DNA of 64,000 bases from an uncultured virus (IMG/VR IMGVR_UViG_3300031413_000601) (taxonomy: Duplodnaviria; Heunggongvirae; Uroviricota; Caudoviricetes): the IMG/VR virus record IMGVR_UViG_3300031413_000601; one strand, given 5' to 3'. Numbering within the stretch: the stretch's first letter is position 1; the number at the start of each line of letters is the position of its first letter. The notes below the pieces were generated by a model, which was not told the origin of the DNA, ran no database searches, and worked only from the letters and a program-made list of their open reading frames with translations. Both the position numbers and the translations under genes were made by a program. This document shows, piece after piece, positions 3,377 through 63,642 of this stretch.

Positions 3377-3599
3377 TCGTGCCTCCGGACAGTTCAGTTT
3401 GCGCGATCAGGCGCGAGATGCCGGCGGCCAGCGACACCGCTGAGGCGATGCCGGCGAACACACCGTTCGGGATGCCGGCCGGCTGAACGAACTGCACGCC
3501 CACCTCCAAGCCGCCGAGGATGGCGGCGAGGATGCTGAACTTCATGGACCAGGCTTTGCCGAGCACGGCCTGCCAGTCTTCGATCAATTCGAATTTCAT
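3360..3599 (-). CDS. Holin-like membrane protein
   Basis: 79 aa, two TM segments, immediately upstream of the endolysin. Confidence 0.7.
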   Translation of the reverse strand: MKFELIEDWQAVLGKAWSMKFSILAAILGGLEVGVQFVQPAGIPNGVFAGIASAVSLAAGISRLIAQTELSGGTNASKP

Positions 3600-8614: not shown

Positions 8615-10080
8615 ACCAATACTCCTACGGTAGCGCGGCCGGTGATCCAGTTCCGCTGCATCATCACCACCACGCCAGGCGCGCCGGCGGCCAGGCCCCA
8701 GCGCTCGTCGCGCAGCACAACGGGCGCGCCCAGTTCCAGCACCATTAGTTCCGGTTCGCCGTCGAACTCATACACAGTACGCGGCACGCTACGCAGCGCC
8801 AGGCGGCGCTCGGCTTCGGCGCGCGCGTCGGCGCGCGTTTTCAGGCACGTTTCGATCTGGACCGGATCGTCAGTCTCGCGGTAACGCGCTTGAACCGCCT
8901 CGTCCACGACCGTCTCGGTCAACCACTCGGTGGCGTACAGGTCGGCGTGCGCCGGCGGGATGCTGGTGGTCAACGCTGCCTGGACGGTCCAGTTCCGGTC
9001 GAACGCGATTTTTACCGCGGCTACCACCGGCAGGCGCTCGGCTGGACGCATCGAATTCGCCAGCATCTGGTTCGCTCCGATCTTTACCGGCACGCCGGGC
9101 GCGGGCAACGCGATTTGCACAAGGCGCAGGTGCCCGGTGGCGGACATGATTGCCTGCGCGCCCACGCTGGAAGCCAATTGCTGGATTGCCACCGCCTGGT
9201 TGGTCCGGTCGGCCACGTACAGCCCTACCGGCTGCGGGTGCGCGGCGTCGAACGTGGCCAAGTTGGCGACGTCGAGGTCGGCCTCGGTAAATCGGCCGGC
9301 GGCCTTGCCGTACGCCGTGGCGATGCGCCGCACAAGCGGTGCAATGCGAGGCGCATAGCCGCCGCCGGCATCGCCCTGCACGCTGGCCGTGATCGTCGTT
9401 GAAAACGGGTTCGTGGTCAGATTGAACCGGCCGGCTTGGTTGTTCAGCGCGACCGCGATGGGCTTTCCGTTGGAGCGCACCTCGAACGAGGATTCGACCG
9501 CTCCGAGGAAACCATATTCCAGCGTTACCGGGTCCGTGAGCAACGGCGCCACGTTGTGGCACTCGCCGAACGGGACCGGCAGGACCGCGTCCTTGTTTGT
9601 CGACGTGCCGCCCAATTTGACTTCGCTGATCGGCGTGTTCAGTCGCTGCAATTTGTCGCGTAGCACCAGGTTCACTGTGTCGCGACTCGCACTGCCCATG
9701 TCATCGACGATGCCGTCGAACACCAGTCGGAAATCCGCGCGCGGCCACGACGGATCGCCGCACCAGGCGCGAATGCGGCGATTGCGCCACACGTCGCCCA
9801 GCCAGCCATCGAGCGCACCATCGCCGTTATCCAGCTCAATGTCGCCGCTGGACAGCGAGGCCTCCCCGGTCAGGCTGACCTGCTCCGTAAACGCCAGTCC
9901 ACCCTTGGCCAGCGGCAGATACACCGTGTTGGCTGGCGTGTCGGCCGGGCCGGTGACATACTCGCGCGAGGCGATATACCGCGTCACCTCGGCGCCATCC
10001 ACGTTCACTTCCGCCTCGATCAGCACCATGCGCACTGCGGCTGGGTTTTTCAGCCAGGCCATGAATTGCTCATCGGTCAT
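8611..10080 (-). CDS. Tail tip/hub protein
   Basis: 489 aa directly after tape measure; LPVPFGECHNVAP motif. Confidence 0.7.
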   Translation of the reverse strand: MTDEQFMAWLKNPAAVRMVLIEAEVNVDGAEVTRYIASREYVTGPADTPANTVYLPLAKGGLAFTEQVSLTGEASLSSGDIELDNGDGALDGWLGDVWRNRRIRAWCGDPSWPRADFRLVFDGIVDDMGSASRDTVNLVLRDKLQRLNTPISEVKLGGTSTNKDAVLPVPFGECHNVAPLLTDPVTLEYGFLGAVESSFEVRSNGKPIAVALNNQAGRFNLTTNPFSTTITASVQGDAGGGYAPRIAPLVRRIATAYGKAAGRFTEADLDVANLATFDAAHPQPVGLYVADRTNQAVAIQQLASSVGAQAIMSATGHLRLVQIALPAPGVPVKIGANQMLANSMRPAERLPVVAAVKIAFDRNWTVQAALTTSIPPAHADLYATEWLTETVVDEAVQARYRETDDPVQIETCLKTRADARAEAERRLALRSVPRTVYEFDGEPELMVLELGAPVVLRDERWGLAAGAPGVVVMMQRNWITGRATVGVLV

Positions 10081-13000
10081 GCATATTCTCCTTTCACAGT
10101 AGACGACCAGGCCGAAGCCGTGGCCGATTTTTGGACGCCATCGACTACCTTGTCGGCTGCCTTGGCGTTGGCCTGTTCATTCGACTGGATCAGCGCACCG
10201 GTCTGCTTCGCCTGATCGGCGCGCAGCCCAGCCACTTCAGCCCGCAGCGCCTTCACCTCGGCCGCCAGCGCATCCGAGCCTGCATTCGACGCGGCCGAGT
10301 ACCGGCTGTAGTCGATCGCTGGCGCCGCGCTGGCCACCATCGCCGTCGCGGCCGGCACCTCGGTGAACTTCACACCCAGCCCATCGGACACGCTCATCGC
10401 CGCTGGCAGGTTGGCAATGGCCTGCGCCACCGTCAGCAGGCTGTCGTTGATGGTGATGAGGCCCTTGACCTGCGCTTCGAGAGCGTCATAGCTGGCCTGC
10501 TGCAGGTCGACCTGCACCGTCGCCCATTTGAGCGCCTCCTCGTTTGCCGCAACCACGCGCGCGTAATCTGCGGCGTATTTGGCATCCGATGCATTGACCA
10601 CCTGGGAGGCGGTCAGGAACGCCTGCTCGGCCGCGGACAGCCCGGACTGTGCCGTCGTGTCGCCGGCGTTGGCAGCCGCCAGCGTCTTCTCGAACTGCGC
10701 CCGCGCCTCCGCGTATTTCTGCTCTGGCGTGAGGTTGGACTGGTTGCCCAGTGCGAGATTGGCATTCAGGCCATTTAGTGTGGTCACCCATGCTTTCGAT
10801 TTTTCGATAGCGGTTTTGGCTGCAGTGGCTTCCTTGTCGTACGCGGTTGCCAGCGCATCCTTGGCCGATACCACAGCCTTGGCCGCCTGCACCTGGTCGA
10901 ACAGCGCCTTATTCACGTCGGCGATGCCGGCCCGCTGGATGGCCAGCAGTTCCGCGTCGCTTTTCGTGAGTTCGTTGAGCTGCTGTTGCAGGTCGCGATG
11001 CTCACTGGCGATCTCGCTGGCAGTTTTTGCGACTGCTGCGAATTCGCCCGTGGCAGCCGCCAATTCGGCGGCGTAGTCGGCGGCCTGCTTAAATGGTTCC
11101 GCAATGGCAATCAGCTGGCCGTACAGCGCCTGGCCGGCCGCCGTGTTCAGGTCCTGCGCCAGCACCAGCGCCTTGAACTGCTCGCTGGTGGTGACGTTCG
11201 AATACCCGAGCGCGGTCATTGCAGAGCTGACCGATTTAGTGATCGGCGCCATGCGCTCGGCTTCGCTGAGATAGTTCTCGGCAAAGTAGGCCGTCCCCGA
11301 CGTCAGTTTTTCCAGCCCACCGGCTGCCGCAATCAGATCCTGGCTGAGTTTGACCGCACCGAGGCCGGTCGAATTGAACGATTTACCAAGCACCGCCAGC
11401 ACGTCATTGACTTGCATCTGTTCATTGGCAACCCGCACCAGCGTTTCCAGATACCCCTCACCCACCTGCTGGAACTGCGCGATGCCTGCTACACTCCAGC
11501 GGGCCATATCGTCGCCCAGTTTTGAGAACGCTGTCTCAAGAGCCTTCTGCTGCTCCTCTCCCGTCAGGTCTTTCAGGCTGATCTTTCCGAGATCGACAAC
11601 GAAAGAATTGAGCTGTTCGTTAAATGCCGCGCCGTCCAGGCCCAGCACGCCGGCTGCGCCACGAATGGTGTCACCCATACCGGTGATAATCATCGTGAAC
11701 TGGTCATTCATCTCATCGGACAAGTTCGCGTAATTGGTGTCGCTCTTGTTGCTGTACGTGACGCCGAACGCCTTTTTCTTTTTCTGCACATCCGCGTAGG
11801 CTTGCGCAGTGAAACCGAGATCATCGATCTGGCCCAGCGACATTGCTTTACCGGTAATGCCCTGATCGGTGATCGACGTGGTGGAACCAAACAATTTGCC
11901 CAACTGTTTGCCCAGCACCGTGCCCAAGACAGCCCCGATGGCAATCCCCAAGGGACCGCCCACAGCCAGCAGCGAGGTGCTCATGAAACTGCCCATGCCT
12001 ACGTAGGCGCCCAGTGCAGCACCGCCCAGGCCACCGGCAGCCATGCCTGCGGCGGTGCCAAGGGAGCCGCCGGGGATGGTCGTTCCGGTTTGGACCCCGG
12101 CAGCTGCGCCACCGCCAGCGGCGACAACGCCGCTGCGCGCCAGCAGACCTGCCAGATTGCCAATCCCCGCCACCATCTGTTTCAGCGACAGGTCCATCGA
12201 GATGGTGTGCGCCAGGCCCAGCCCGGAATTTTTCTCCATGATGGCCAGGCTGTGTGCGATCGATTCGGATTTAGCATTGCTGTCGCCCAGCACCGTGCCG
12301 GTACCATTGGCGGCCTGTCGCTGCTGGGATACACTCGCGCCACCACCGACGCCCCCAAACATCTTGGCGCCAACAGCTACAACGGCCGCGAGAGTTGCTG
12401 CGCCGGCCGCCAAGTTCAGCGGGAACGGTAGCGACGCCATCGCTTTCACCACGGCCGTGATACCCCAGGCACTGGCCTCGGTCGCTGCCAGGCCGGTAGA
12501 CGCTGCCGTGGTCGCGGCCTCGCCGGTAAGCTTGGTCGCGTTCAGGGCAACGTTTGCAGCCACCTCCCCTTCCTTGAAGAAGACTTTCTTGACCATCGAC
12601 TCCAAAGCCATGGCCATCTCGTATGCACGGAATGCGCGCTCCGTGGTCTCCATCACCTTGTAACCCTTCGAGTTCTCTTTGAAGAAGCCCTTCGACGCGG
12701 CCGCCATGTCGCCGTAGGATTTGATTTGCGCCTGGGCCGAGGCCTTCGAAGCAGCGATCTCAGCCTTGGCGATCTTGTCAGCGCTGCTCTTTGGATCCGC
12801 CTTCACGGCCGCCAACTGCGCGGCCACGGCCTGCTGCTGCACGGCGTAGTCGGTCAGCGCCGTGGTCAGGCCCCCGATAGCGGTGCCCACGGTACCGAAC
12901 GATGCGGCCATGCCTTGAGCAGCCGACTTCGCTGCGTTGTCCACGGCAACCAGGATGTCTAGCAGTTCCTTGGCTTTCGCCACGCTGGTGCTCGTGTCCA

Positions 13001-15671
13001 GCGCCTCGCCGACCTTCTGCACGCCGGCCAGACGCGTGTACGCTGCGATCTTGGCGTCGATTGCGGCCACAGCCTTATCGCTCCCCTCGAATAGAGAAAC
13101 AGTTGCCCTCTCGGCTTCCAGTTGCGCAATGGTCGCTGCGGTGACCGCCGACGGCAGTTTGTTGAATGCGGCGATCTGCATCTCGGTCGCGGCGATCTGG
13201 TCATTGATAGCGACCAGCTCCTTGGCGTTCGCCGCTTCAGCATCGCGAGCCGGCTTGTCGCGGTCGTACTCGTACGCGATGCGCAGTTGCTCTGCGGTGG
13301 CCAGCGATGAGCGAAGTGCCTCGTTGCGCTGGGTGCCAAGTTGCTTGATTTTGGCGCCGTTGGCAACACGCTCGGCCACGTCCTTGCCGTTGTAGGCGGA
13401 CAGCGCGGTGATCTCGGCGTCAAATACCTTCACCGAATCCTCGCCGGCTTTGATCGCGGCGTCGCGCCGGGCAGTGTACACCTGATAGTCGGAGGCAAGC
13501 CCTTGCCGCTGCAGTTCAGTAACCGAAGTCACGCCTTCCGCTCGCATGTTCTTCTCGCGCTCGATGCCCGACTTAATGGCTTCGAGGCGTGCATCTATCT
13601 GCGCCTTGCTATTGGCCGCCAGATCTTTACCCGCGTCCGATGCCTTCCAAGTTTCGGTAGCAAGCTTTGAAACCAGTTCGATGTATTCTTTTTCCGGGAT
13701 TGCGTTGGCCTCCCGGGCGGCCTGCAGTGCCTTGAGATCGGTAAGGTACTGTTTATTCACGCCGGTCAAACGCTCGCGCACAGCTTCCAGCGCCTGGGCC
13801 GCCGGGCCAAAAGCAGCCGCCTGATCATCTGTCGCGTTGCGCTTTTGGAGCTTCTCTGTTTCCTCACCGATTTTTTTGATAACGTTCAGACGATCGATCA
13901 GTACGTCGGTTTCGCTCTTTCCTTTACCTGGCGCATAATCGCCGGTGCGATTATTGATATCATTCAACAGGGCAGACGCCGCTTTCAGTTGATCGAGAAC
14001 AGGCAGATCTTTTTCCGCCTTGTCTTTCGGGGTGCCAAGCTTCTGCAACTGGATAAGCTTTTCGTTTCTGTCGATCTGTTGGTCCAGCCCCTTTATAATG
14101 CGGTCGTGCGCTTCGTCGAACGACTCGCCCGCCTTCTCTGCTGATTCCTTGGCCTTGTTCCCCCAAAGCACCCACGCAGTTACACCAAGTCCGAGCAACG
14201 CTGTAACAATCCCAATGGGACCGCCAAGGAAGCGAAGCGCCGTCGTCAACACACCGACCGATACGGCCGTACGCCCAGTAGCGCCGGCCAGACCAGCCTG
14301 CGCAGCAGCTTGAGCGGTAGTCGCGGCCGTATTAGCTGCGCTTGCAGCCGTTTGCGCAGCAGTTGCAGCGGTGATTTGGGCGGACACACGAGCTTGCGCC
14401 ACACCGAGGGCGGCAAGTTCGGCCATCGCCGCGGCACGGGCGGCCTCCGCAACAACCAATTCAGCGGTCGACAAACTCAAGATGCGCAGCGCGTAGCTTT
14501 GGGCGCCGGCAGCCGATGCAGCCGCGATGGCGGCCTCAGCGGACGCAATCGCGGAGCGAGCTTGCGTCAGGTGCGCGACTGCGCTCTCGCGAATAGCGAT
14601 GATCTCCGCACGCTGGGCTACCAGCCCCGCCAACACGGCTTCAGTTTCCACGAGCTTCGCCGCAGTGGACGCAGCGGTCGCAGCGGTGCTGGCGACCATG
14701 GCTTCGGCGCGCGCCACCAGCGCAGCCTTTTCGGCTACGACTAAAGCGGCCAGTTCGGCATTCGCGGCAAGGTAGGCGTTCACGGCAGCCGCGCCGGCGA
14801 TGAAGTAGCCGGCGATTTTTACCGCAAACAAGCCGCTCATTGCGGCCATCACCACGTCCAGATTCTCAGCCAGAAGCGACAGGCTGCTGGTGAGTAGACG
14901 AACCATGCCGTTGGCCTCAGCTTTTACTGCGGTGAGTTCCATAACCTTGTTTTTCAGCACGGTGAACGAGCCGGAAATGGTCTGAACCTGCTTCGCCTCT
15001 TCCTTCAAGTCTTGGAGGGCTTGTGGGAGTACGGTCGCCATGATCTTCGACGTGATAGCGCCCTCTTCCGCCATCTTTTTGAGGGCGCCCACCGGCAACC
15101 CCATGCCGTCGGCAAGCGCTTTCATCAGGCGGGGCGCTGCCTCATTCACTGCGTTGAATTCCTCACCGCGCAGCGTGCCAGAGGCGAAGGCCTGCGACAA
15201 TTGCAGCATGGCCGATGCCGACTCGGACGCGGTGGCGCCGGACACCTTCAAGGCCAGATTGACCACTTCAGTGATCGATGCGACCTGCTTTTGCCCCACG
15301 CCCAGCTCGCGCGTGCCGTTCGCGATTCGTGCGTATAGCACCCCCGTCGAGGCGAGATCCTGCTGGGAGGTGTTGGCAATGCGGCGTACGTCATCCAACG
15401 CGGCCGCATACTCGCGCGTGGACGTGGTGGCCAGGCGCAATTGCGCCGTGAATTTGGTGTACTCGTCGGCCATGCGGATGATCGCGCCGATGCCGGCGCC
15501 AATACCGATTAGCGCCAACGTTTCGGTGAGCTTACGGGTAGCCGTTTCCAGGCTACTGACTTGGCGCTCGGCTCGGCCGCCGGAATCCCGCATGCGGTCC
15601 ATATCCCGAGCGGCGTTGCGCGCCTCCAGCGAATTGATGCGAATTGCGAGGGTAGCGACGTCAACGGTCAT
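10077..15671 (-). CDS. Tape measure protein
   Basis: 1864 aa, Ala-rich; N-terminal tape measure domain QLSQAFASGTLRGEEFNAVNE; TM-like segments. Confidence 0.95.
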   Translation of the reverse strand: MTVDVATLAIRINSLEARNAARDMDRMRDSGGRAERQVSSLETATRKLTETLALIGIGAGIGAIIRMADEYTKFTAQLRLATTSTREYAAALDDVRRIANTSQQDLASTGVLYARIANGTRELGVGQKQVASITEVVNLALKVSGATASESASAMLQLSQAFASGTLRGEEFNAVNEAAPRLMKALADGMGLPVGALKKMAEEGAITSKIMATVLPQALQDLKEEAKQVQTISGSFTVLKNKVMELTAVKAEANGMVRLLTSSLSLLAENLDVVMAAMSGLFAVKIAGYFIAGAAAVNAYLAANAELAALVVAEKAALVARAEAMVASTAATAASTAAKLVETEAVLAGLVAQRAEIIAIRESAVAHLTQARSAIASAEAAIAAASAAGAQSYALRILSLSTAELVVAEAARAAAMAELAALGVAQARVSAQITAATAAQTAASAANTAATTAQAAAQAGLAGATGRTAVSVGVLTTALRFLGGPIGIVTALLGLGVTAWVLWGNKAKESAEKAGESFDEAHDRIIKGLDQQIDRNEKLIQLQKLGTPKDKAEKDLPVLDQLKAASALLNDINNRTGDYAPGKGKSETDVLIDRLNVIKKIGEETEKLQKRNATDDQAAAFGPAAQALEAVRERLTGVNKQYLTDLKALQAAREANAIPEKEYIELVSKLATETWKASDAGKDLAANSKAQIDARLEAIKSGIEREKNMRAEGVTSVTELQRQGLASDYQVYTARRDAAIKAGEDSVKVFDAEITALSAYNGKDVAERVANGAKIKQLGTQRNEALRSSLATAEQLRIAYEYDRDKPARDAEAANAKELVAINDQIAATEMQIAAFNKLPSAVTAATIAQLEAERATVSLFEGSDKAVAAIDAKIAAYTRLAGVQKVGEALDTSTSVAKAKELLDILVAVDNAAKSAAQGMAASFGTVGTAIGGLTTALTDYAVQQQAVAAQLAAVKADPKSSADKIAKAEIAASKASAQAQIKSYGDMAAASKGFFKENSKGYKVMETTERAFRAYEMAMALESMVKKVFFKEGEVAANVALNATKLTGEAATTAASTGLAATEASAWGITAVVKAMASLPFPLNLAAGAATLAAVVAVGAKMFGGVGGGASVSQQRQAANGTGTVLGDSNAKSESIAHSLAIMEKNSGLGLAHTISMDLSLKQMVAGIGNLAGLLARSGVVAAGGGAAAGVQTGTTIPGGSLGTAAGMAAGGLGGAALGAYVGMGSFMSTSLLAVGGPLGIAIGAVLGTVLGKQLGKLFGSTTSITDQGITGKAMSLGQIDDLGFTAQAYADVQKKKKAFGVTYSNKSDTNYANLSDEMNDQFTMIITGMGDTIRGAAGVLGLDGAAFNEQLNSFVVDLGKISLKDLTGEEQQKALETAFSKLGDDMARWSVAGIAQFQQVGEGYLETLVRVANEQMQVNDVLAVLGKSFNSTGLGAVKLSQDLIAAAGGLEKLTSGTAYFAENYLSEAERMAPITKSVSSAMTALGYSNVTTSEQFKALVLAQDLNTAAGQALYGQLIAIAEPFKQAADYAAELAAATGEFAAVAKTASEIASEHRDLQQQLNELTKSDAELLAIQRAGIADVNKALFDQVQAAKAVVSAKDALATAYDKEATAAKTAIEKSKAWVTTLNGLNANLALGNQSNLTPEQKYAEARAQFEKTLAAANAGDTTAQSGLSAAEQAFLTASQVVNASDAKYAADYARVVAANEEALKWATVQVDLQQASYDALEAQVKGLITINDSLLTVAQAIANLPAAMSVSDGLGVKFTEVPAATAMVASAAPAIDYSRYSAASNAGSDALAAEVKALRAEVAGLRADQAKQTGALIQSNEQANAKAADKVVDGVQKSATASAWSSTVKGEYA

Positions 15672-41512: not shown

Positions 41513-42742
41513 TCATTTGTCGCCTTCCGAGAATAAACGTGGTTGCACAGCGCCGTTCGCGTAAACGGTATCCATGATCGTGGTGGCAATCGGCTCATCG
41601 CCATCCCAGCCGTCGGGCCAGGTCTCCAAGGCGATCAGCTCGCGAATGCGCGCCTCTTCCTCGTCGTTGATCAGGTCCACCACCGGCCGGCGCAGCGCGT
41701 GCGCGGCGGCGTTTATCTCGGCCTGGACGCCCAGGATCGTCTCCAGGCCCATAAGGCGCGCCTCGAATGTGAGCGGCCCCATGCGCTGCGGGTTGGCAGC
41801 CTGTTTCCCTGACTTGAGGATTTCCAACCCGGCTTTGCGCAGCCGGTGCTCAGGCTTACGCAGTTCGCGCCACAGCGGCTTGATGCGCTTGAGTGGCGCC
41901 AGATATGCCCATTGCGGGTTCAGCAGGATGTTGTCGAGCGCCATGTCGGTATCGACCAGCGGGCAGCCCGTGCAGCCGGTGCGCGCGTTGATTTCCTCCG
42001 CCTCGTCGCCGCCGTAGGCCTCGGCGATAGCGGCCGTGCTCCAGTCGCCGAATTCATCCTGCGGCGCCCAGTGGCGCAGCCACTCCCATACGTGGCAGAC
42101 GCGCCAGTGCAGCAGCGGCGCCAGCGTGGCCAGGCGGCCGCGCAGTCCCTTGGCGTTCGGCAGCACCTGCTGATACCAACCCTGCCCGCATTCGGCGCCG
42201 TCCTTGCTACAACTCATCTCGATGCGCTGGTCGCGGATCGCGCTCTCACCCTGGCGCACGCCAGTGATCATCAGCACCTGGCCGTCGAGCTGTGCCAGGC
42301 GCTGCTCCAACGCGTGCTGCATCGGATCGATCTTGATCTGGCGCGTGCACCAGCGCAGCGTGTTGTTGTTCGGCGGCGGCACTCCGCGCCCGAGGATGTA
42401 GACCATGAACCGCTTGTCCATCGGCGCCGTGACCACTTCGACCTGGATGCCGCGCTCGCGTAGCTCGTCCATGATCTGCTGCGCCGAGATGGCCAGTGGC
42501 GGCAGTTCCTGGCGCGTGTCCGCATAGAACACGGTGAGCGTCTTCGGGCGCGGCACCCGGCCGGTGTCGAGTAGCCAGGTGATCAGCGTCAACGTCGCGC
42601 TGCTGTCCTTGCCGCCCGACCAGGCAATGCCCCAATGTTCGTGCGTGGCGCCGTAGGCAAGCAGCGACTGGATGGTGAGTTCGATGGAATCGGTCATTTG
42701 CAGACGGACGGCGCTTGCGGCGAAGATATCGGTCTGGTTCAT
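41513..42742 (-). CDS. DndC-like PAPS-reductase-family PP-loop protein
   Basis: SGGKDS, DT..E.P, ILGRGVPPP...RWCT..IKIDP, GVRQGES..R, RTGCTGC, GP.T.EAR, DLI..EE...IR. Confidence 0.85.
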   Translation of the reverse strand: MNQTDIFAASAVRLQMTDSIELTIQSLLAYGATHEHWGIAWSGGKDSSATLTLITWLLDTGRVPRPKTLTVFYADTRQELPPLAISAQQIMDELRERGIQVEVVTAPMDKRFMVYILGRGVPPPNNNTLRWCTRQIKIDPMQHALEQRLAQLDGQVLMITGVRQGESAIRDQRIEMSCSKDGAECGQGWYQQVLPNAKGLRGRLATLAPLLHWRVCHVWEWLRHWAPQDEFGDWSTAAIAEAYGGDEAEEINARTGCTGCPLVDTDMALDNILLNPQWAYLAPLKRIKPLWRELRKPEHRLRKAGLEILKSGKQAANPQRMGPLTFEARLMGLETILGVQAEINAAAHALRRPVVDLINDEEEARIRELIALETWPDGWDGDEPIATTIMDTVYANGAVQPRLFSEGDK

Positions 42743-42774
42743 GATACGCTCGCCAATTTTAGGAAAGCATCACC

Positions 42775-42984
42775 ATGGAACGAAGCCGAATTGTGGAAAT
42801 TATTGATATTCGTGGCCGTGATGTAACCATCACGCTGGTTGAGAGCGATGACGGCACATGGTCGACGGGAGTTGCGGTCGACGGGAGCACCGTTACAACC
42901 ATGCCGCAAGAAGTCACGAGTAAGGAAAAGGCGCGCGACTACGCAATCGGCGTGGCCAGCGAAATTATCGGAGTGCAGACGTAG
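42775..42984 (+). CDS. Small acidic antisense moron
   Basis: 69 aa, AGGA upstream. Confidence 0.55.
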   Translation: MERSRIVEIIDIRGRDVTITLVESDDGTWSTGVAVDGSTVTTMPQEVTSKEKARDYAIGVASEIIGVQT

Positions 42985-43007
42985 GCGCAATCTTCCCGAC
43001 GGGATAT

Positions 43008-43439
43008 TCATATTTTCGCTCCCAGCGCCCGGCTCATAGCAGCGTAGTTCAAACCGGCCAACTTGCAACCGTCTTGGGTGGCGTGAAAGTAGCGCAGGTC
43101 AAGCAGCGCGGCGCCGGCGCGCACGAAGCCAGCGGCGACCAGGCGCTCGAGCGCGGCCAAATCGCGGCGGTTGGCCAGGTACTGGTTGCGGAAGCCCCAG
43201 CGCGACTGCGGGTGGTGCGACGGGGCGCCCAGCATGTGGTGCAGGATGTCGAGGTCGTCATCCTGCAGGGTTGCGACGCGGGCGGCAAACAGGCAGGCAA
43301 CGCAGTGTTGGTGCTGCACCAGTTGCTTGGCCGGCGCGGCCTTGCCGCAAGCGCAGCGCTGGGCCTTGAGCACTGGCGCGGGCTTTTCGTTGGCGATGGC
43401 GCGGTGGCGGCGCTCTTCGCGGGAGAGGTCGTATATCAT
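43008..43439 (-). CDS. Hypothetical protein
   Basis: CACG...CVAC then ILHHMLG...GFRNQY; AAGGA RBS. Confidence 0.65.
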   Translation of the reverse strand: MIYDLSREERRHRAIANEKPAPVLKAQRCACGKAAPAKQLVQHQHCVACLFAARVATLQDDDLDILHHMLGAPSHHPQSRWGFRNQYLANRRDLAALERLVAAGFVRAGAALLDLRYFHATQDGCKLAGLNYAAMSRALGAKI

Positions 43440-43474
43440 GATACGATTCCTTTTTCATAATTTTTGAGGTTCAA

Positions 43475-43888
43475 ATGAAAGCTGCAACCGTGGTGGAGCC
43501 CTACCGAGAATTTGAGATCGAGATCACAACAACTCCTATGCAGGACAACACGTGGACCGCTCACGTAATAGTCAGATATCAAGGAAGACAAGTCGGAATG
43601 ACGCAGCTGGATGGGAATTTCGCGACCCAAAAAGATGCTGCAAAGCTGGCTCTCCTCTCGGGCCGTAATTTTGCAGAGACTTGGCGTGCAAAAAAATCTG
43701 CGGAGCAAAGCGCGGCTGGCACGATAGTGCTTGTCGGCTCTTTCTTCTACGAATTCCCTTCGGCTGAGGAAGCCAAAGCAGCGCTCCAGTGGCTGTTCGA
43801 CAGCGATGCCACGGCGGAAGAATTCGACATTAAATTTGCGGGATTTCGGTATATGGCCATCAGTGTTGGCAACCGATTCACGATCTAG
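43475..43888 (+). CDS. Antisense moron, hypothetical
   Basis: 137 aa, GAGG RBS, lower GC. Confidence 0.65.
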   Translation: MKAATVVEPYREFEIEITTTPMQDNTWTAHVIVRYQGRQVGMTQLDGNFATQKDAAKLALLSGRNFAETWRAKKSAEQSAAGTIVLVGSFFYEFPSAEEAKAALQWLFDSDATAEEFDIKFAGFRYMAISVGNRFTI

Positions 43889-43899
43889 TGCAAAGATAA

Positions 43900-44307
43900 T
43901 CACGCAGCCACCCAACCCACTTCACACTCATGCGTAAAGTTCGCCTGAATTAGTGCCCGCGCCATCGGCGGGCGGCTCTTCGTGGCCTTCTCCGTCTTTG
44001 AGCGCAAAGCGTTTGCGCACGGCGTAGAGCATGATTTCGCTCGGGCGCGCTTTGTCGGCGCCGGCGTGAATGTCTTTCCGCAATGCTGGCAGGCCAACTG
44101 CAGCGGATGTTTCTGCTTATGCTCAGCCATATGATCCTTGGCCGTCATTACCACCAAGTTGCTGATGTCGTTGTTCCGGATATTTTCATCACGGTGATGC
44201 ACCTGTTCACCCGGCAAAAGCGCGCGGCCAAGGTGCTGCTCCATGATGTGCCGATGCTTCAACTTGGTTTTCCCGTCGACCTCCACGGTGAGGTATCGAT
44301 AAGTCAT
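43900..44307 (-). CDS. HNH homing-endonuclease-like protein with zinc finger
   Basis: HRHIMEQHLGR.L...EQVHHRDEN..NN...NL, then CQHCGKTF...CSTPC. Confidence 0.88.
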   Translation of the reverse strand: MTYRYLTVEVDGKTKLKHRHIMEQHLGRALLPGEQVHHRDENIRNNDISNLVVMTAKDHMAEHKQKHPLQLACQHCGKTFTPAPTKRARAKSCSTPCANALRSKTEKATKSRPPMARALIQANFTHECEVGWVAA

Positions 44308-46487
44308 GCTGCGGCCCCTTGAATAAGCTTTTCGTGTGAAAAATTGGCGAAGATGAGTGCTCGGGCCATCGGAGGGCAGACAGAATTTCCGACCATGCGT
44401 ACCTGGGCTGACTTCGTGAGCGCCACGCGCGGCAGGTCCAGCGGGTTGCCGTCCACCTGGCGGCCGTCTTTGAATAACAGCGCCGGATCTGGGATTTCGC
44501 GGATCACGTAGTCTGCCGGGAAGCCCTGGGCGCGATACAACTCCGCCGGATCCAGCATGCGCAGGCCGATGTCCACGATCTGGTAGTCCACGCCCTGGAT
44601 TGTGACCAGGCCGAACCGGTCGCGGCTGGTCACGGTAGCCAGCGGAGAATCTGGCGACTGATCCTGATCGGTTCCGTAGTACGCGAGCAGGAAGGCGCGC
44701 ACCTCGGCGTGGTGCTGGCCGCCGGCGCTGATTGTGTGAAGCGGCTCTTCGACGCTGGCCGTGCTGCTGGTGCCGCGCAACTTCACCAGGCTGCTGGTAA
44801 CGATGCCGGCAGTGGCGCCGCTCGCGGTGATCGTATTAATCGGATGCTCGACGTCGCGGATGCCGTGGCTGAAACGTTTGCCGCCTTCCTTGCCTTCGCC
44901 GTGGCCCATATGACTCAGGTTCGCCGTCACTACCGCATGGCGATTCTCCGTAGTGATGGTTTTTACTGGCTCATCGGGCAAGTGGCCGCGAGCGTCGGTC
45001 GGGCGCTTATCGCTGTAGTAAGGCTGCAAGTGCGCCGCCACCAGGCTGTGGTGGTCGCAGCTGGTGATGGTGCCGATTGGGTCGTCTAGATCGGAGCCGA
45101 CGACGCCGGTGTAATGCTTCGCAAGGAAAGCGGTTGCCAGGGCCTGATTGCCGGCGGCCGTGATCGTAGGCACTGGCGCCGTGGCCTCTGCCCCAGGATG
45201 GCCCGTGGTGTTGGTCATCACGAACGGCGCCAGTTCCACGGTGGAAACCGAAAAGTGGCCGCCCTTCACCTGGGCACAGACTGTGCGCAGCGGCTCGTCC
45301 ACGGCCATCACGCGCTGGTTGGCGGCGTTGGCGTGTTCGTTCAAGAATGCGCTGACCAGCGCAGCCTTGCCGCCGCCAGCGGTGATCGTGCCCAACGGCT
45401 TCTCGATGTCGAGCGCGCGCGGCGCCTGGCCCTCACGCTCACCGTAGCCGACCTGCACCATCGAGGCCACGGCCAGCGCCTTCTCGCCGCGCTGCGCGCC
45501 GGTGATGGTGCGGAACGGCTCGTGAACGGATTCATTGCGGTCGCTGCCCTGGTGCGTCACCGGAACAATGGTCGGCACGACCACGGCGCGGTGGTTCTCT
45601 GTGGTCAGCGTGCCGAACGGCTGCGCAGCTGGCACCGGCTTGCCGGAATAGATCGGGCCACCCTGCCCCACAATGAACGGCGCGGGCGCGTCCACCACGT
45701 AGCGCATGATGCCCTTGGCGATGCGCCGCAGCGTGGCCGGCGCCAGCGGGCGCTTGCGCTCGAAGATCGATGGGCAAGCAATATCCCAGTCGATGCATTC
45801 GGCGGCCGTGCGGTGCGGCAGCAACTTCCCGGCCAGGACGCCGGGCGAGGTCGGCGCGCCGTGCGTCGGCGCCGGCCAGCGGATAGGAAGGCCATCGCGA
45901 CGAGCGACCAGGAAGAAGCGCTTGCGAATGGTTGGGGTGTCGTAGTCGCTGGCGCGCAGCTCGCGGTGGTCGACCATGTAGCCATGGGCGCGCAGCTGGC
46001 GCAGGAAGCTCTCGAACGTTTTGCCTTTCTTCGCCGGGTCCGGACGGAAATTACCGTCAGCGTCTACAAGCAGTGGGCCCCAGGTCTTAAATTCTTCGAC
46101 GTTCTCGAGCATGATCACGCGCGGCTTGCACTTCGCAGCCCAGCGCAGTGTTACCCATGCCAAACCGCGAATATTCTTCGCCACCGGTGTGCCGCCCTTG
46201 GCTTTGCTGAAATGCTTGCAGTCAGGCGACAGCCAGACCAAGCCCACGGGCTGGTTGTTCGTCACCTTGATAGGGTCGACGTCCCACACGCTCTCGCACA
46301 GGTGCTTCGTGTGCGGGTGGTTCATGGCGTGCATCGCCAGCGCTTCGGGGTCGTGGTTGATAGCGATATCGACCGGACGGCCGAACGCTTCTTCCAGGCC
46401 GGTGCTGGTGCCGCCGCCACCGGCGAAGTTGTCGATTATCAGCTCGTGGCCCAGATCTAGGGACATGGTGAAATCATCGCGCCTCAT
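44304..46487 (-). CDS. C5 cytosine DNA methyltransferase with expanded repeat region
   Basis: DNFAGGGG, SPDC, ENV, R.RFF, ELYRAQGFP, GNSV. Confidence 0.93.
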   Translation of the reverse strand: MRRDDFTMSLDLGHELIIDNFAGGGGTSTGLEEAFGRPVDIAINHDPEALAMHAMNHPHTKHLCESVWDVDPIKVTNNQPVGLVWLSPDCKHFSKAKGGTPVAKNIRGLAWVTLRWAAKCKPRVIMLENVEEFKTWGPLLVDADGNFRPDPAKKGKTFESFLRQLRAHGYMVDHRELRASDYDTPTIRKRFFLVARRDGLPIRWPAPTHGAPTSPGVLAGKLLPHRTAAECIDWDIACPSIFERKRPLAPATLRRIAKGIMRYVVDAPAPFIVGQGGPIYSGKPVPAAQPFGTLTTENHRAVVVPTIVPVTHQGSDRNESVHEPFRTITGAQRGEKALAVASMVQVGYGEREGQAPRALDIEKPLGTITAGGGKAALVSAFLNEHANAANQRVMAVDEPLRTVCAQVKGGHFSVSTVELAPFVMTNTTGHPGAEATAPVPTITAAGNQALATAFLAKHYTGVVGSDLDDPIGTITSCDHHSLVAAHLQPYYSDKRPTDARGHLPDEPVKTITTENRHAVVTANLSHMGHGEGKEGGKRFSHGIRDVEHPINTITASGATAGIVTSSLVKLRGTSSTASVEEPLHTISAGGQHHAEVRAFLLAYYGTDQDQSPDSPLATVTSRDRFGLVTIQGVDYQIVDIGLRMLDPAELYRAQGFPADYVIREIPDPALLFKDGRQVDGNPLDLPRVALTKSAQVRMVGNSVCPPMARALIFANFSHEKLIQGAAA

Positions 46488-46669
46488 GTGAGCCTCGGCT
46501 TCTGTGGATTGGCGAAGTGGGCACAAGGTGGCGATTCTCTTGTGTATTCGAGCGGACCAAAGCACTGCAAGCGTTCCAATTCAGCTGAAGTGAACATGCG
46601 GGTGGGCAGAACTTCTTCGACCAGTTCCCAGATAGGCGCCACGGGTTTGGTGATCAGGTCGCGCTTCAT
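46484..46669 (-). CDS. Hypothetical protein
   Basis: 61 aa with ATGA overlaps. Confidence 0.5.
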   Translation of the reverse strand: MKRDLITKPVAPIWELVEEVLPTRMFTSAELERLQCFGPLEYTRESPPCAHFANPQKPRLT

Positions 46670-48789: not shown

Positions 48790-49161
48790 TCAGCCAGGAA
48801 GGCCGGACGAGGCGGCGCCGGTAGCAGGCGTGATGAACTCGGCGGCGTGGTCACCCTGCTTCGCCAGCACTTCGAGCAGCGTGTTTTGCTTGCGCAGCTC
48901 GGCCAGGATCAGGTCTTGGGTTTCGTCGGACATCAGTTCGGAACTCACGAACTCGCCCTCTTGCGCAAGCAGCGCGTCGTTGATCGCGGCTTCGGCGCCG
49001 CGCGCGGCGTCGCTCAGCCGGTCAATCTTCGCTATCGCGGCATCCAGCGGTGCGCTGTCGATCTCGAAGTTGAGTTCCATCGTGATGACGCTCGGCGCGA
49101 GCTTGGCCGGCGCCGGAACGTAGCCGAGCAGCTTAGCGATGCGGTTGAGTGCGGCCTTCAT
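48790..49161 (-). CDS. Hypothetical protein
   Basis: ATGA overlap with cro stop. Confidence 0.55.
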   Translation of the reverse strand: MKAALNRIAKLLGYVPAPAKLAPSVITMELNFEIDSAPLDAAIAKIDRLSDAARGAEAAINDALLAQEGEFVSSELMSDETQDLILAELRKQNTLLEVLAKQGDHAAEFITPATGAASSGLPG

Positions 49162-49394
49162 GCGGCGTCTCCAGTGCGATTGAGCTGAGTCAAGGGGGCC
49201 GCCGTCAGCGGCGCGCACGCTGTGCGATGCAACTCCGTGATCGCCAAGAGTGTGCTGCCCTTGCAGTCGTCCTGGCCATTGAGGATGCGGTTGACCGTGG
49301 GCTGCGAGGTGCCGAGTTCTTCCGCAATCTTCACTTCGCTCCAGCCGGTGGCGCTTTTGATCTCCGTGAGGAGTGTCGAAATTTTCTTGTCCAT
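49158..49394 (-). CDS. cro: Cro-like repressor
   Basis: HTH SEVKIAEELGTSQPTVNRILNG, divergent from cI. Confidence 0.88.
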   Translation of the reverse strand: MDKKISTLLTEIKSATGWSEVKIAEELGTSQPTVNRILNGQDDCKGSTLLAITELHRTACAPLTAAPLTQLNRTGDAA

Positions 49395-49400
49395 GCTCGC

Positions 49401-49477
49401 ACTCTATACGCGAATGGATAAGCAGTCAATACCTGAATGAATAGAAAGTTGTACTCGCTTATACGTGTACGTATAGT
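49401..49477. promoter_or_regulatory. OR region: three operators with divergent PR and PRM-like promoters
   Basis: 16-mers at 49405, 49428 and 49460; minus strand TTGACT-17-TAGAGT; plus strand TATAGT at 49472. Confidence 0.78.
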
Positions 49478-49484
49478 CCCGACC

Positions 49485-50195
49485 ATGACAATCGCATCCC
49501 GCCTCGACGAAGCAATGCATGAAGCTGGGTTTCCATCCCAGAGCGCGCTCGCGCGCGCATCCGGCATCCCGCAACCCACCATCAATCGAATACTGAAAGC
49601 AGTTGGAGTGAAAGGACCGGAGTCCTCGACAGTTGCCGCCCTTGCTGCAGCATGCAATGTCTCATTCAACTGGCTGAACGAGGGCATCGGCCCCAAGGCG
49701 CGCGGCAACGACGGCACCGCTACGGCGACAAACTTCCCTCACCAAAAAGTTGCTATCGCCGAGCCAGGAGATCCCAACAGCTACTTCATCAAGAAGGTTA
49801 AGTTGCAGCTGCGAGCGGGTGTGACTGGGTTTCAAACCGTCCCTGACATCTATGACGGTGACACCGTGAGCCTGGCGAAGAATTGGGCGGATCGAAAAGG
49901 GTATAACCCCAAGGCCTTGATCGCACTCACCGTGGCTGGCGAAAGCATGGAGCCAAACCTGTATGCGGGCGATGTTGTGATCGTCAACACTGCCGACATG
50001 GAGAAGAAGGACGGCGCCGTTTATGCATTTAACTACGACGGCGAAGCCGTCATTAAACGGTTAGTCAAGGAGCGCGGGGAATGGTGGCTGTTCTCGGACA
50101 ACTCTGACCAGGCAAGGCATCGTCCCAAGGGGTGCGCTAGTGTGGACTGCGGAATTATCGGCCGAGTTGTGAAGCGCGAGACTGATCACATTTAA
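49485..50195 (+). CDS. cI: CI-like repressor with S24 autopeptidase domain
   Basis: HTH SQSALARASGIPQPTINRIL, AG cleavage site (LRAG), GESMEP Ser and IKRL Lys. Confidence 0.93.
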   Translation: MTIASRLDEAMHEAGFPSQSALARASGIPQPTINRILKAVGVKGPESSTVAALAAACNVSFNWLNEGIGPKARGNDGTATATNFPHQKVAIAEPGDPNSYFIKKVKLQLRAGVTGFQTVPDIYDGDTVSLAKNWADRKGYNPKALIALTVAGESMEPNLYAGDVVIVNTADMEKKDGAVYAFNYDGEAVIKRLVKERGEWWLFSDNSDQARHRPKGCASVDCGIIGRVVKRETDHI

Positions 50196-50270: not shown

Positions 50271-50693
50271 ATGAAGATTTTAGGCATCTTGATCTTGGCT
50301 GCGGGCCTTGCCCTGGGACTTTATTCGATCACGATGGACGTCTCAGTGAGCGTAGCTGCCAGGGACTATGGGTATGGCATTCAGACGCCGGCAATGGAGG
50401 TGGCCAACCTCGACAAAATGTCGCAGCGCCAGAACCTCATGATCTTCTCCGGAATCCTTTCAGTGGTGGGAGCAATCCTCTTGGGCTTCGCCTCTATGCA
50501 GCCCAAAAGCTCGATGGCACCACCGCCTGCAGAGGCAACTCCTTCAGCCATCGATGAACACCGAGAATTTATGGATAAACTCCTCGCATCGCCCAATACG
50601 CCCGGCAGCTTCTCGATATGCCCCAAATGCAGGCATATGGGTGGCGGCGATGATGTGGCGTGCACTCGGTGCGGCGCGGTGTTGCCCGCATAG
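50271..50693 (+). CDS. Membrane protein with C-terminal zinc ribbon (immunity-region moron)
   Basis: Two TM segments; CPKC...CTRCG. Confidence 0.75.
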   Translation: MKILGILILAAGLALGLYSITMDVSVSVAARDYGYGIQTPAMEVANLDKMSQRQNLMIFSGILSVVGAILLGFASMQPKSSMAPPPAEATPSAIDEHREFMDKLLASPNTPGSFSICPKCRHMGGGDDVACTRCGAVLPA

Positions 50694-50768: not shown

Positions 50769-51530
50769 ATGGGATCGGTGAAGGAAAGAAAGCCCGCCGC
50801 CCGAGGGCCCGGAGCAAAGCCAACAATCAAAACACTTCTGAGCCAGCGCGAGCTTGAGAATGCCGGCGCGAATTTCGAAGCTTTCATAAAGGCCACTCGT
50901 CAGCAGAATGAACTCGCCACGGGACTATACGCTCGATTGAGCGCCCTTGGCCTGGAAGGCCTGACGACAAGGGAGGAGTTTAGAGATGCGGTGCGGGGAA
51001 CGAACTTAACCACGGAAGACGGGGCAAAACGATTTGTTGAACTTTTGGCTTTGGCTAAGGAGTTTGCGTCACTCACACCTCCGATTGAAGAAGTACCGGG
51101 CGCGAGACTCGAACCCGAAAGTTCTGTGGTTGACAGTTCACCAACAAAAGAAGAAGATCACCCTATGAGCGCTCCAACCCGCGAGGAAATCGACACCAAA
51201 CTAGAACTCATCGAAACTCGGATGGACGGGCGAGTTGCAGCCATCGAAAGCTCAGTACGAGCTGCGATCGCCGAATCGCAGGAGACCAGGCGCGACATCA
51301 AGGGTTTGAGGTGGACTATCATCTTCACCGCTGTCGCGACCGTGGTCGGGCTGTGGGGAGTAAATGCCGCAATCTTTTCGAATATGGTGGCATCGTTCGA
51401 ATCGGGCAAGAGTACGGCGACAGCGCAGGCCGAGGTGAAGAAGCAGACCGAGGAGACGGCAGCACTGATTAAACGCATGCAGGAAGATCTGGATGCCCGG
51501 AAAACAGCAGTTCCGCCGGCTGGAAAATAG
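50769..51530 (+). CDS. Membrane protein with a tape-measure-like segment, coiled coil and TM helix
   Basis: AGGA RBS; residues 53-99 align with the tape measure; REEIDTKLE...WTIIFTAVATVVGLWGV. Confidence 0.75.
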   Translation: MGSVKERKPAARGPGAKPTIKTLLSQRELENAGANFEAFIKATRQQNELATGLYARLSALGLEGLTTREEFRDAVRGTNLTTEDGAKRFVELLALAKEFASLTPPIEEVPGARLEPESSVVDSSPTKEEDHPMSAPTREEIDTKLELIETRMDGRVAAIESSVRAAIAESQETRRDIKGLRWTIIFTAVATVVGLWGVNAAIFSNMVASFESGKSTATAQAEVKKQTEETAALIKRMQEDLDARKTAVPPAGK

Positions 51531-51543
51531 CCCCCCCACCATC

Positions 51544-51566
51544 AGCCCGCAACTGCGGGCTTTTTT
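51544..51566 (+). terminator. Intrinsic terminator ending the cI transcript
   Basis: AGCCCGC-AACT-GCGGGC-TTTTTT. Confidence 0.85.
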
Positions 51567-51644
51567 GTGCCCCCCTCCCCACTGCAAGTCATTAAATCCC
51601 GTCCGCACAACTAACACCCAATGCTTGAAAATTTTTTCCCATAC

Positions 51645-51686
51645 TATCCATTCGCGTATTGACTTATCTATTCGTTCGCGTATAGT
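51645..51686 (+). promoter_or_regulatory. PL-like promoter with two operators
   Basis: TTGACT-16-TATAGT overlapped by 16-mers at 51645 and 51669 that match the OR operators. Confidence 0.8.
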
Positions 51687-62588: not shown

Positions 62589-63307
62589 TTGACCTCGATA
62601 AACTTGAAGCGCTGGCGCGCGCGGCGACGCCGGGCCCATGGCATTTTCTTTTTGTTGAAAGCGACGACAGCGCCTATCCGTCCGACGGATGCCACGTCTA
62701 CGCCGACAACAAGAAGCCGCTGATTACCGACGATGATGCACCGTGCGAAAGCGATTCGATCTACATCGCCGCCGCCAACCCGGCCGCTGTGCTCGAGCTG
62801 ATCGCCCTCGCGCGCCAGGCTACCGGCGTCGGCATAGCCGCCATCCCGCTGGTGAGCGGCGAGCAGCTGGCGCGGACATTCCCGGTTGCGGAGGAATCTA
62901 ATTACCCCGAATTCGATGGATTTACTCCGCATTCGGTGCAGCAGCATACGCCACTTGCGATCCACGGCCAAGCTGGCGACATCTTCGACCTGATTCGCGA
63001 GTGGGCGCACCTGCCGGAGAACAAGCGCGGGAACGTGGCGCGCCGCATTATTAAACACCTGAATCGGACGTACGCGGCTGGCGTTCGCGATACTCGCACT
63101 CAGCTGGCCGTTGCGGGCGACGCCAAATTCACGCCATTGGCTCTGGAGCAGGCCGCCCAGGCGTGCGACCAACAGGCCGATGGCACCAACGGCCCGTACC
63201 GCACGGCGTGCTTGCAATGCGCCAACGCGGTGCGCGAGCTGCGCGACGCCGCCATTAACGCTGATGACCGGCAGGCGGTCGCAACCGACCAGGGGACCCA
63301 CCCGTGA
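62585..63307 (+). CDS. Ead/Ea22-like protein
   Basis: LEALARAATPGPW...YIAAANPAAVLELI. Confidence 0.85.
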   Translation: MIDLDKLEALARAATPGPWHFLFVESDDSAYPSDGCHVYADNKKPLITDDDAPCESDSIYIAAANPAAVLELIALARQATGVGIAAIPLVSGEQLARTFPVAEESNYPEFDGFTPHSVQQHTPLAIHGQAGDIFDLIREWAHLPENKRGNVARRIIKHLNRTYAAGVRDTRTQLAVAGDAKFTPLALEQAAQACDQQADGTNGPYRTACLQCANAVRELRDAAINADDRQAVATDQGTHP

Positions 63308-63642
63308 AATTCGACGAAAGCGAACTGGCCCGCATTGCCGAACTGGTGGCAAGCAAAAACAAGAACCCGCTGGGCGAGTTGAACCGGCAACAGATTTGCA
63401 CCGCGCTTGGCGTGAGCGAATCAACAATCCGGCGGCTCGAACAGCAGGGAATGCCGTACACGCCAGTGGGAGCGCGCTCCAAACGCTACGACCTGGCAGA
63501 ATGCAAAAATTGGTTAAAGGAAAACAATACATGTCCATCTGGGACGACAAAAACGGCCGCAAACACGTCGGGATCATGGTCGCCGGGAAAAGAGTTCACC
63601 GAATCTTGCCGGAAGGTGCAACTACGAGTGATGCCAAGCTAG
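63304..63642 (+). CDS. Excisionase-like HTH protein
   Basis: LNRQQICTALGVSESTIRRL..GMPY......RYDL; overlaps the integrase start. Confidence 0.75.
   Translation: MKFDESELARIAELVASKNKNPLGELNRQQICTALGVSESTIRRLEQQGMPYTPVGARSKRYDLAECKNWLKENNTCPSGTTKTAANTSGSWSPGKEFTESCRKVQLRVMPS

Follow-up and report, generated by a model that had tools for sequence, protein, structure and literature searches.

We present here a membrane protein, encoded in the immunity region of a lambdoid siphovirus prophage, that carries a module homologous to siphovirus tail tape measure proteins (TMPs). Its gene, an open reading frame (ORF) at 50769..51530 on the plus strand, lies in a 64,000-nucleotide stretch of DNA (the window; G+C content, 62%) from an uncultured virus, IMG/VR record IMGVR_UViG_3300031413_000601. 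From N to C terminus, the 253-residue product comprises a TMP-like domain (the N-domain), a disordered linker, a coiled coil, a transmembrane (TM) helix, and a helix predicted to be periplasmic. From its position and by analogy with known systems, we propose, with a probability of roughly 40%, that the protein serves in superinfection exclusion or defense as a membrane-tethered TMP look-alike, which would pair with the corresponding TMP region or compete for the partner of that region.

A tape measure module in a membrane protein

The first-pass annotation of this DNA had aligned 47 residues of the ORF product (50925-51065) by hand with 47 residues of the phage's own TMP (11091-11231). On recount, 15/47 residues are identical without gaps, and the reverse complement of 11091-11231 translates to exactly the peptide that had been quoted, which is TMP residues 1481-1527. 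The similarity to TMPs is real homology, supported statistically by BLASTP, PHROGs, a hidden Markov model (HMM), and a profile search of a protein library. BLASTP of the two whole proteins gave the same pairing as its top segment, with 15/43 identities, 26/43 positives, no gaps, and an E value of 6e-5 that refers to this single comparison. In PHROGs, ORF residues 34-109 matched the TMP family phrog_25966 at E 4.1e-6. A weaker match, to phrog_7740 (E 0.012), is shared by the corresponding part of the phage's own TMP.

To model the N-domain, an HMM was derived from 17 family members (alignment A1 minus P0061; N-terminal 142 columns) and compared with 120 listed relatives of TMP residues 1400-1600, which are Oxalobacteraceae TMPs. 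All 120 were matched at one homologous place (HMM positions ~33-118) with domain scores of 21.9 to 40.9 bits, and no sequence of that set scored above 3.9 bits when reversed. The phage's own TMP scored 25.7 bits (i-E 5.4e-8) over residues 1465-1553; the homologous stretch, ORF ~33-118 against TMP 1465-1553, is thus longer than the one first aligned.

A profile search, proposed at first pass as a way to see whether TMPs would be the top hits, was run with a 12-sequence N-domain profile (A2, residues 1-108) against 1,835,955,588 representative proteins. It gave significant matches, nearly all of them long TMPs: 699 at E≤0.001, 23 at E≤1e-10, and 2 at E≤1e-30. Among the 150 matches listed, 134 are 715-3311 residues long, and the match typically lies 65-85% of the way along them; another five (P0016, P0006, P0196, P0198, and P0233) are either family members proper or broken copies. 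Of eleven further short matches listed, the seven whose sequences were read (P0241, P0243, P0256, P0280, P0290, P0316, and P0335) resemble TMP fragments without a membrane anchor; P0215, P0223, and P0334 were viewed in the alignment only. PHROGs assigned TMP families to 26 of 27 long matches scanned, the exception being the repetitive P0197. Pfam, run on 35 proteins, placed TMP_2 or TMP_3 above cut-off in 7, DUF4214 in 6, and Peptidase_S74 in 1. The module is tandemly repeated in some TMPs, with up to 10 matched stretches per protein. Examples of proteins with the module in tandem are P0197, P0274, P0201, P0205, and P0243; some long proteins combine the module with DUF4214, and one combines it with a Peptidase_S74 chaperone domain.

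Judged by sequence, the module is a conserved, sometimes repeated, and so far unnamed unit of long siphovirus TMPs, to which ORF residues ~33-118 belong. The ORF product has the ~85-residue helical module that TMPs bear at ~65-85% of their length. It lacks the other marks of the class, namely an N-terminal TMP_2, TMP_3, or PhageMin_Tail domain, a length of many hundreds of residues, and a gene in the tail operon after the chaperone genes: no TMP Pfam domain is present in its 253 residues, and the tail operon is 35 kb away from the gene, which belongs to the immunity region. The protein is not a TMP but a carrier of one TMP module.

The frame is open over the whole of 50769..51530, as first annotated, and AGGA stands 5 nt ahead of its first ATG, where it is also kept in the only other full-length relative with genomic context (locus L003, which is protein P0009 and phage record G002). 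The protein begins with a basic peptide (residues 1-17, 50769-50819, plus strand) of consensus MASVKDKRPAARGPGAK, which is near-invariant among family members. This peptide is predicted to be disordered and lies outside the TMP homology. The TMP-homologous module (residues ~33-118, 50865..51122, plus strand) is the part matched by the HMM. The anchor module (residues 133-253, 51165..51530, plus strand) contains the coiled coil, the TM helix (residues 183-204, 51315..51380, plus strand; Kyte-Doolittle peak, 1.97), the conserved motif SNMVASFESGK, and the C-terminal helix. An AlphaFold2 (AF2) model made with alignment A1 has a mean predicted local distance difference test (pLDDT) score of 62, with the N-domain well defined (pLDDT 81-87) as helices 26-59, 68-76, and 83-102. 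In the rest of the model, a Pro/Ser/Glu linker (106-132) is disordered and is followed by a long helix (138-210) and a final helix (216-246). The linker, coiled coil, and TM helix described at first pass are therefore all present in the model and the hydropathy profile. Foldseek found no match to the full model in the PDB at E≤0.001, and VIA-align wide returned generic coiled-coil rows only (best Z, 6.2), mostly for residues 129-250.

The segment at 183-204 is the only hydrophobic one in the protein; there are no cysteines, and the N terminus has no hydrophobic segment. About 180 hydrophilic residues precede the TM helix, without a signal peptide, and the 15 residues flanking the helix hold, summed over 24 family members, 63 Lys or Arg residues on the N side versus 24 on the C side. 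Because of this bias and of the long N-terminal part without a signal peptide, the protein is predicted to be N-in, with the TMP-like module in the cytoplasm and ~48 residues, including the conserved motif, in the periplasm. The membrane anchoring claimed at first pass thus holds, with the module placed on the cytoplasmic rather than the periplasmic side.

Relation to the resident tape measure protein and evidence for translation

The phage's own TMP (1864 residues; 10077..15671, minus strand) matches Pfam TMP_3 at its N terminus (E 5e-55) and 17 TMP PHROGs. Its module (residues 1465-1553; 11013..11279, minus strand), homologous to the N-domain of the ORF, follows two hydrophobic segments (1080-1109 and 1229-1254) and lies ~210 residues C-terminal of the second, which is glycine rich. 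In an AF2 model of TMP residues 1301-1600 (alignment A6; mean pLDDT 62), the module is the best-defined part (pLDDT 83-90), and its helix and loop spacing is that of the N-domain, a 9-residue helix being flanked by loops of 8 and 6 residues. A C-terminal block of ~940 residues of this TMP (~925-1864; 10077-12900) is conserved across Janthinobacterium and Duganella TMPs. Those TMPs differ in N-terminal type (Pfam TMP_2 or TMP_3), range from 1047 to 2581 residues, and are mosaics.

The N-domain had been described at first pass as a copy of a segment of the phage's own TMP, a description that did not hold. It is 35% identical to its own phage's module and 46-54% identical to the modules of other TMPs over ~50 residues, and it is matched at E≤1e-3 by 196 of 265 TMP-like sequences compared. 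The N-domains of this phage and G002 are 69% identical to each other versus 38% for their TMP modules. Compared with the TMP of their own phage, they are 35% and 28% identical; compared with that of the other phage, 39% and 42%. The possibility that the N-domain tracks the resident TMP was ruled out on these values, own-TMP identity being below cross-phage identity. Since the N-domain does not follow its own TMP and is nearer to other TMPs, its sequence identifies it as an old offshoot of the TMP module family and not a recent self-copy.

Resident TMPs were inspected in the two phages with the fused form, this phage and G002 (CheckV, 100% complete). The TMP of G002 has 1697 residues and bears the module (E 5.4e-17). 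Three phages with anchor-only proteins in their cI operons (G003, G004, and G006) have TMPs of 630, 651, and 602 residues without the module; G005, at 70% completeness, yielded no TMP. The fused ORF therefore accompanies a module-bearing resident TMP in 2/2 fused-form phages versus 0/3 anchor-only phages, which is suggestive, at the level of sequence, of co-occurrence between the fused form and long, module-bearing TMPs.

The ratio of nonsynonymous to synonymous substitution rates (dN/dS) between this phage and L003 is 0.197 for codons 1-108, 0.164 for the module, and 0.08 for the anchor. The N-half differences, in a domain 69% identical at the protein level, fall mostly at third codon positions (41/77). 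With dN/dS at ~0.2, the N-domain behaves as protein sequence under purifying selection and hence as translated. The first-pass annotation had considered translation solely from the internal ATG at 51165, which is countered by the N-half dN/dS of 0.16-0.20.

That ATG encodes Met133, and the DNA at the junction of N-domain and anchor (51129..51167, plus strand) reads TTGACA, 17 nt, GAAGAT, 6 nt, ATG. Between this phage and L003, 6/42 nt differ in the junction versus 18/36 in the linker just upstream, a comparison that involves these two DNA sequences. M133 is invariant in 18/18 aligned sequences, and D122 and D130 nearly so, within an otherwise variable linker. These features hint that the long form may be accompanied by an anchor-only product, made from an internal promoter or start; as an internal promoter, the junction could give a leaderless anchor-only message. 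A stronger version would be that only the short product is made, the upstream 132 codons being an untranslated or decaying remnant of recombination with a TMP gene. The invariant M133, the conserved junction ahead of it, the stand-alone relatives that begin at its equivalent, and the lower G+C content at third codon positions of the N-half (0.50 versus 0.64) fit this version. We consider it highly improbable, however, given the low N-half dN/dS and the predominance of third-position differences, an open frame that is preserved in 16 relatives, even at overall identities as low as 44%, the conserved AGGA before the first ATG, and a module modeled at pLDDT 81-87.

Anchor family and immunity region

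The ORF has 73 relatives at E≤0.001. Sixteen align from residue 1 and carry the N-domain, which is 58-77% identical to that of the ORF and is joined among them to at least two different coiled-coil/TM anchors. Retention at this identity across anchor types implies that it is the tethered module, and not one particular anchor, that has been kept. The other 57 share the C-terminal half only, and 13 of those begin exactly at the Met133 equivalent. In the family alignment, anchors of the ORF type are most strongly conserved around the TM helix and in the motif SNMVASFESGK directly after it, and positions E17, D21, M74, F78, S80, and G81 of anchor alignment A4 are invariant. The ORF product has the features of this family: REEIDAKLExIExRMDGRVAxIE, a single TM helix, then SNMVASFESGK, encoded on the same strand as a cI-like repressor and downstream of it. 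Two PHROGs of unknown function, phrog_5820 and phrog_6701, overlap the anchor. In Pfam-A at E≤1, the only rows for the ORF product were two chance matches below threshold (Selenoprotein_S and Apolipoprotein), the anchor half matched only "hypothetical protein" clusters in a protein atlas, and a search of genome contigs with the A1 profile found no relative. The A2 profile found one locus in metagenomes, L017, with a copy interrupted by an insertion sequence. There, an N-domain gene (197-388) is cut after ~50 codons by a 439-residue transposase-like gene (438-1757).

Relatives occur at 14 IMG/VR loci, of which 12 were scanned; L012 and L014 were left out as near-duplicates of L011 and L013. A cI-like repressor with an S24 peptidase lies ≤~2 kb upstream on the same strand in 9/12 (L003, L004, L006, L007, L009, L010, L011, L013, and L016). 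L005 has a repressor-like gene with only a helix-turn-helix (HTH) domain upstream, no repressor was recognized upstream in L008, and L015, a weak match, lies beside a TMP gene. In Pseudomonas phage D14O, an anchor-family relative is downstream of cI. In Pseudomonas phage vB_PaeS-D14P (L002 3683-4375), the anchor-family gene occupies a moron position in the tail operon, with tail-tip genes I and J on either side, and its product has a different 105-residue N-terminal extension. These loci place the anchor half in a family of cI-operon membrane proteins that is widespread and has no name.

A scan of 30 other anchor-family members found the TMP module in none, their weak matches to TMP PHROGs being confined to the coiled coil. 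As none gave a significant module match, virion-protein mimicry was rejected as a general property of the N-terminal extensions in this family. The main rival to the exclusion reading starts here: the anchor alone would be functional, in exclusion, abortive infection, or membrane stress, and the module would be an interchangeable appendage, spacer, or oligomerization unit with no TMP-directed role. The 57/73 anchor-only relatives and the 13 starts at Met133 fit this rival, as do the N-terminal extensions of other members (all different, 0/30 with the module), the standing of the TM helix and periplasmic motif as the most conserved part of the family, and the tandem repetition of the module in TMPs. 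The N-domain, however, is more conserved than its anchors (78% mean column identity), is kept across at least two of their types at a dN/dS of ~0.2, and is seen only with module-bearing TMPs, the last in a small sample (2/2 versus 0/3). We judge this rival doubtful.

Position within the window is in keeping with the proposed role. The cI-type repressor (49437..50195, plus strand) combines HTH_3 (E 8.7e-7) with an S24 LexA-like peptidase (Peptidase_S24, E 8.8e-20) and matches phrog_4 (E 2.5e-46). On the minus strand is a cro-like HTH regulator (49158..49394; phrog_6831 transcriptional regulator, E 2.2e-7), the first rightward early gene, preceded by a promoter-like site (49429->49401). An 18-nt operator-like repeat at OR (49403..49420) lies over the PR-like promoter and is 94% complementary to 51645-51662 and 88% complementary to 51669-51685. 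The latter two repeats (D8, I3, I4) lie in the OL/PL-like region (51645..51686, plus strand) around a TTGACT-16-TATAGT promoter that matches the consensus at 10/12 positions. Because these shared 17-18-nt repeats bracket cI, a zinc-ribbon gene, and the ORF, the ORF sits between OR and OL, and its placement in the immunity region is borne out. After its stop, an intrinsic-terminator-like hairpin and T-run (51544..51571, plus strand) ends the cI operon, with a 7-bp stem containing 6 GC pairs (hairpin 51544-51561) followed by TTTTTTGTGCC. The first-pass placement downstream of cI and ahead of a terminator is accordingly correct; the ORF is not directly after cI, as the zinc-ribbon gene (50271..50693, plus strand) intervenes.

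The zinc-ribbon protein has 140 residues, a C-terminal CxxC...CxxC, and two TM helices (hydropathy peaks 1-26 and 54-77). It matches phrog_8032 (function unknown; E 1e-8) and, weakly, Pfam Zn_Ribbon_1 (E 0.046). Proteins with CxxC...CxxC, some with TM helices, also occur directly beside anchor-family genes in other cI operons (L003 9506-9880; L001 3636-3920 and 4843-5496; L007 9456-9920; L009 9577-9864; L011 9658-9972), and such small proteins precede the anchor-family gene in L001, L007, L009, and L011. The zinc-ribbon gene and the anchor-family gene could form a two-gene cassette. With phmmer, the zinc-ribbon neighbor of the ORF showed no similarity to the neighbors at the other loci. The order in L003 is cI, a small gene, a gene for a zinc ribbon plus TM helix, the ORF homolog, and a gene for a PEP-CTERM protein. 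The last (L003 10815-11774), located before the early-left genes, encodes 319 residues ending in a PEP-CTERM-like sorting signal and is another moron in the slot.

A further alternative would have the protein serve the phage's own cycle. After induction, it would hold or time the phage's TMP or the assembly of tails at the membrane, or it would modulate lysis in the manner of XhlA-like or holin-associated proteins. In its favor, the phage's own TMP bears the module, and a coiled coil with a TM helix resembles lysis-associated proteins, with weak rows for phrog_2658 ("hol-like", E 0.028) and phrog_1193 ("hemolysin", in 3/30 relatives). But the gene is in the cI operon between OR and OL, outside the late and lysis operons, the lysis cassette is complete elsewhere (2.5-3.6 kb; endolysin 2894-3376, holin 3360-3599), and the N-domain is nearer to the TMPs of other phages than to its own. 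This alternative appears improbable.

The rest of the window has the following layout. Tail, head, and terminase genes extend to 30.3 kb on the minus strand, and replication genes occupy 35.8-40.1 kb. A large serine-recombinase-like gene (33195-34751, plus strand; phrog_95 integrase, E 5e-51) is located on the opposite strand, after the terminase module and before the replication module. An early operon block (41513-46565, minus strand) contains a PAPS-reductase-like gene (phrog_12882, E 4e-236), two HNH endonuclease genes, and a gene for a 753-residue DNA methyltransferase, and may be a DNA-modification block. An Ant-like gene is at 47.7-48.4 kb. Past OL/PL, the leftward early genes include a RecT-like gene at 54573 and an exonuclease gene at 55811, and an excisionase-like gene (63304-63642) lies near the end of the window.

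Proposed function and comparison with known systems

The proposed exclusion function can be set out in steps. The ORF product would be made in the lysogen, as argued from its position in the cI operon, as a single-pass inner-membrane protein. It would be a fusion of two parts, a cI-operon membrane anchor and a cytoplasmic three-helix module descended from siphovirus TMPs, whose tether would keep the TMP look-alike at the inner membrane, on the cytoplasmic side. The look-alike would pair with the homologous region of an incoming siphovirus TMP, or with the normal binding partner of that region, and the pairing would jam channel formation or DNA entry, or the later assembly of new TMP into tails. 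We infer the expression in the lysogen, the N-in topology, the TMP binding, and the protection; a host-protecting role is argued, by analogy with HK97 gp15 and immunity-region genes, because anchor-family genes recur at repressor operons and also occupy a tail-moron slot. A more specific form of the proposal, that temperate siphoviruses captured a TMP module and tethered it at the cytoplasmic membrane face under repressor-operon control as a decoy that co-folds with rival TMPs and blocks entry or tail assembly, is tentative and, as a whole, rather unlikely. The anchor-only product from the invariant internal start might be a regulator of the decoy.

Structure prediction, suggested at first pass for the two segments and their complex, gave the shared helix and loop spacing described above and a weakly supported complex. 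TMP residues 1330-1560 with N-domain residues 20-108 scored 0.56 ("weak support"), the best of 3 controls scoring 0.00; the runs agreed in at least 96% of contacts, and the pLDDT of the partner was at least 78. The mark applied to such scores was reached by 116/157 solved complexes and 2/215 mismatched pairs. Passing scores of ≤0.60 were given by only 18/157 solved complexes and by both mismatches that passed.

Several points weigh against the exclusion proposal. For complex scores in the range of 0.56, wrong passes outnumber right ones unless the complex was likely beforehand. A cytoplasmic module has no access to periplasmic TMP. The N-domain and the resident TMP do not co-vary, the sample for co-occurrence is small (2 versus 3 phages), and the prophage's own TMP bears the module, such that self-interference on induction would need explaining. 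Because the module is tandemly repeated in some TMPs, it may be a generic structural unit and not a specific functional site. With 0/30 other members showing the module, the anchor family works without it, the N-terminal extension being simply variable. Finally, PADLOC and NCBIfam gave 0 families each for the ORF product, with Pfam also giving none.

Prophage exclusion proteins that act at DNA entry are known, with the TMP as target or specificity determinant, and their mode of recognition is mostly unknown. If the proposal is true, a recognition part homologous to the TMP itself would make for a like-binds-like, dominant-negative, and easily tested mechanism. It would also permit sequence-based prediction of which phages a prophage excludes and provide a clue to the function of a conserved, uncharacterized TMP module found in no fewer than 699 protein clusters. 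Apart from this proposal, the unnamed family of membrane proteins encoded in cI operons, which is widespread and often has zinc-ribbon proteins as neighbors, is a candidate immunity-region defense module. The first-pass annotation knew of no described system of this design, in agreement with full-text literature searches, screened mostly as listings, which found no TMP-derived exclusion protein.

Lambda RexA/RexB and P22 SieB are membrane-associated products of immunity-region genes that lie beside the repressor gene or are cotranscribed with it, and they protect the lysogen. An internal promoter serves rexB, and sieB contains an internal start. Both Rex and SieB are abortive-infection systems that are not known to involve virion-protein mimicry. 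The ORF occupies what we take to be the place held by rexA/rexB in lambda: it is likewise repressor adjacent and between the operators, and the internal promoter and start parallel its possible second product. It differs in having no sequence relation to these proteins by Pfam or PADLOC. Pfam models exist for T4 Imm, P22 SieB, lambda RexB, YebO/gp15, and XhlA; no match of the ORF product to models of these exclusion or immunity membrane proteins was found in Pfam-A (E≤1), PADLOC, or NCBIfam.

The target of the Ltp-type lipoproteins is the TMP. These proteins of Streptococcus thermophilus phages provide prophage-encoded superinfection exclusion at the DNA-entry step, according to the available text of PMC3952083. 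Ltp is a surface-exposed lipoprotein, whereas the ORF product has neither a signal peptide with a lipobox cysteine nor any other cysteine, and its module is predicted to be cytoplasmic. The Tai tail-assembly-interference systems were rejected as a match, since the text available describes neither TMP mimicry nor a membrane anchor for them (PMC11364771).

HK97 gp15 is an inner-membrane protein made from the repressed prophage that blocks siphovirus genome entry, with specificity coming from the tail region of the incoming phage, as far as the available text of PMC3594210 describes it. The proposed ORF protein would resemble it, by analogy, as an inner-membrane protein of a prophage. The gp15 protein is a small YebO-like protein encoded by a tail-operon moron and has no TMP likeness; the ORF has no Pfam match, is in a cI operon, and has a TMP-derived domain.

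The membrane-anchored SNIPE (PD-lambda-1) has a cytoplasmic domain that crosslinks to the incoming TMP, and escape mutations map to the TMP, according to the portion of the report available (10.1101/2025.11.03.685801). On that account, a membrane-tethered cytoplasmic domain can meet an incoming TMP, a precedent for the topology predicted for the ORF product, which would share with SNIPE a single-pass tether and a cytoplasmic domain at the site of genome entry. SNIPE has DUF4041 and GIY-YIG behind an N-terminal TM helix, with DUF4041 recognizing the TMP and the GIY-YIG nuclease killing; the ORF product has neither of these, nor any enzymatic domain, and its TM helix is near the C terminus. Unlike the DUF4041 of SNIPE, as described so far, the candidate recognition part of the ORF product is itself a TMP homolog.

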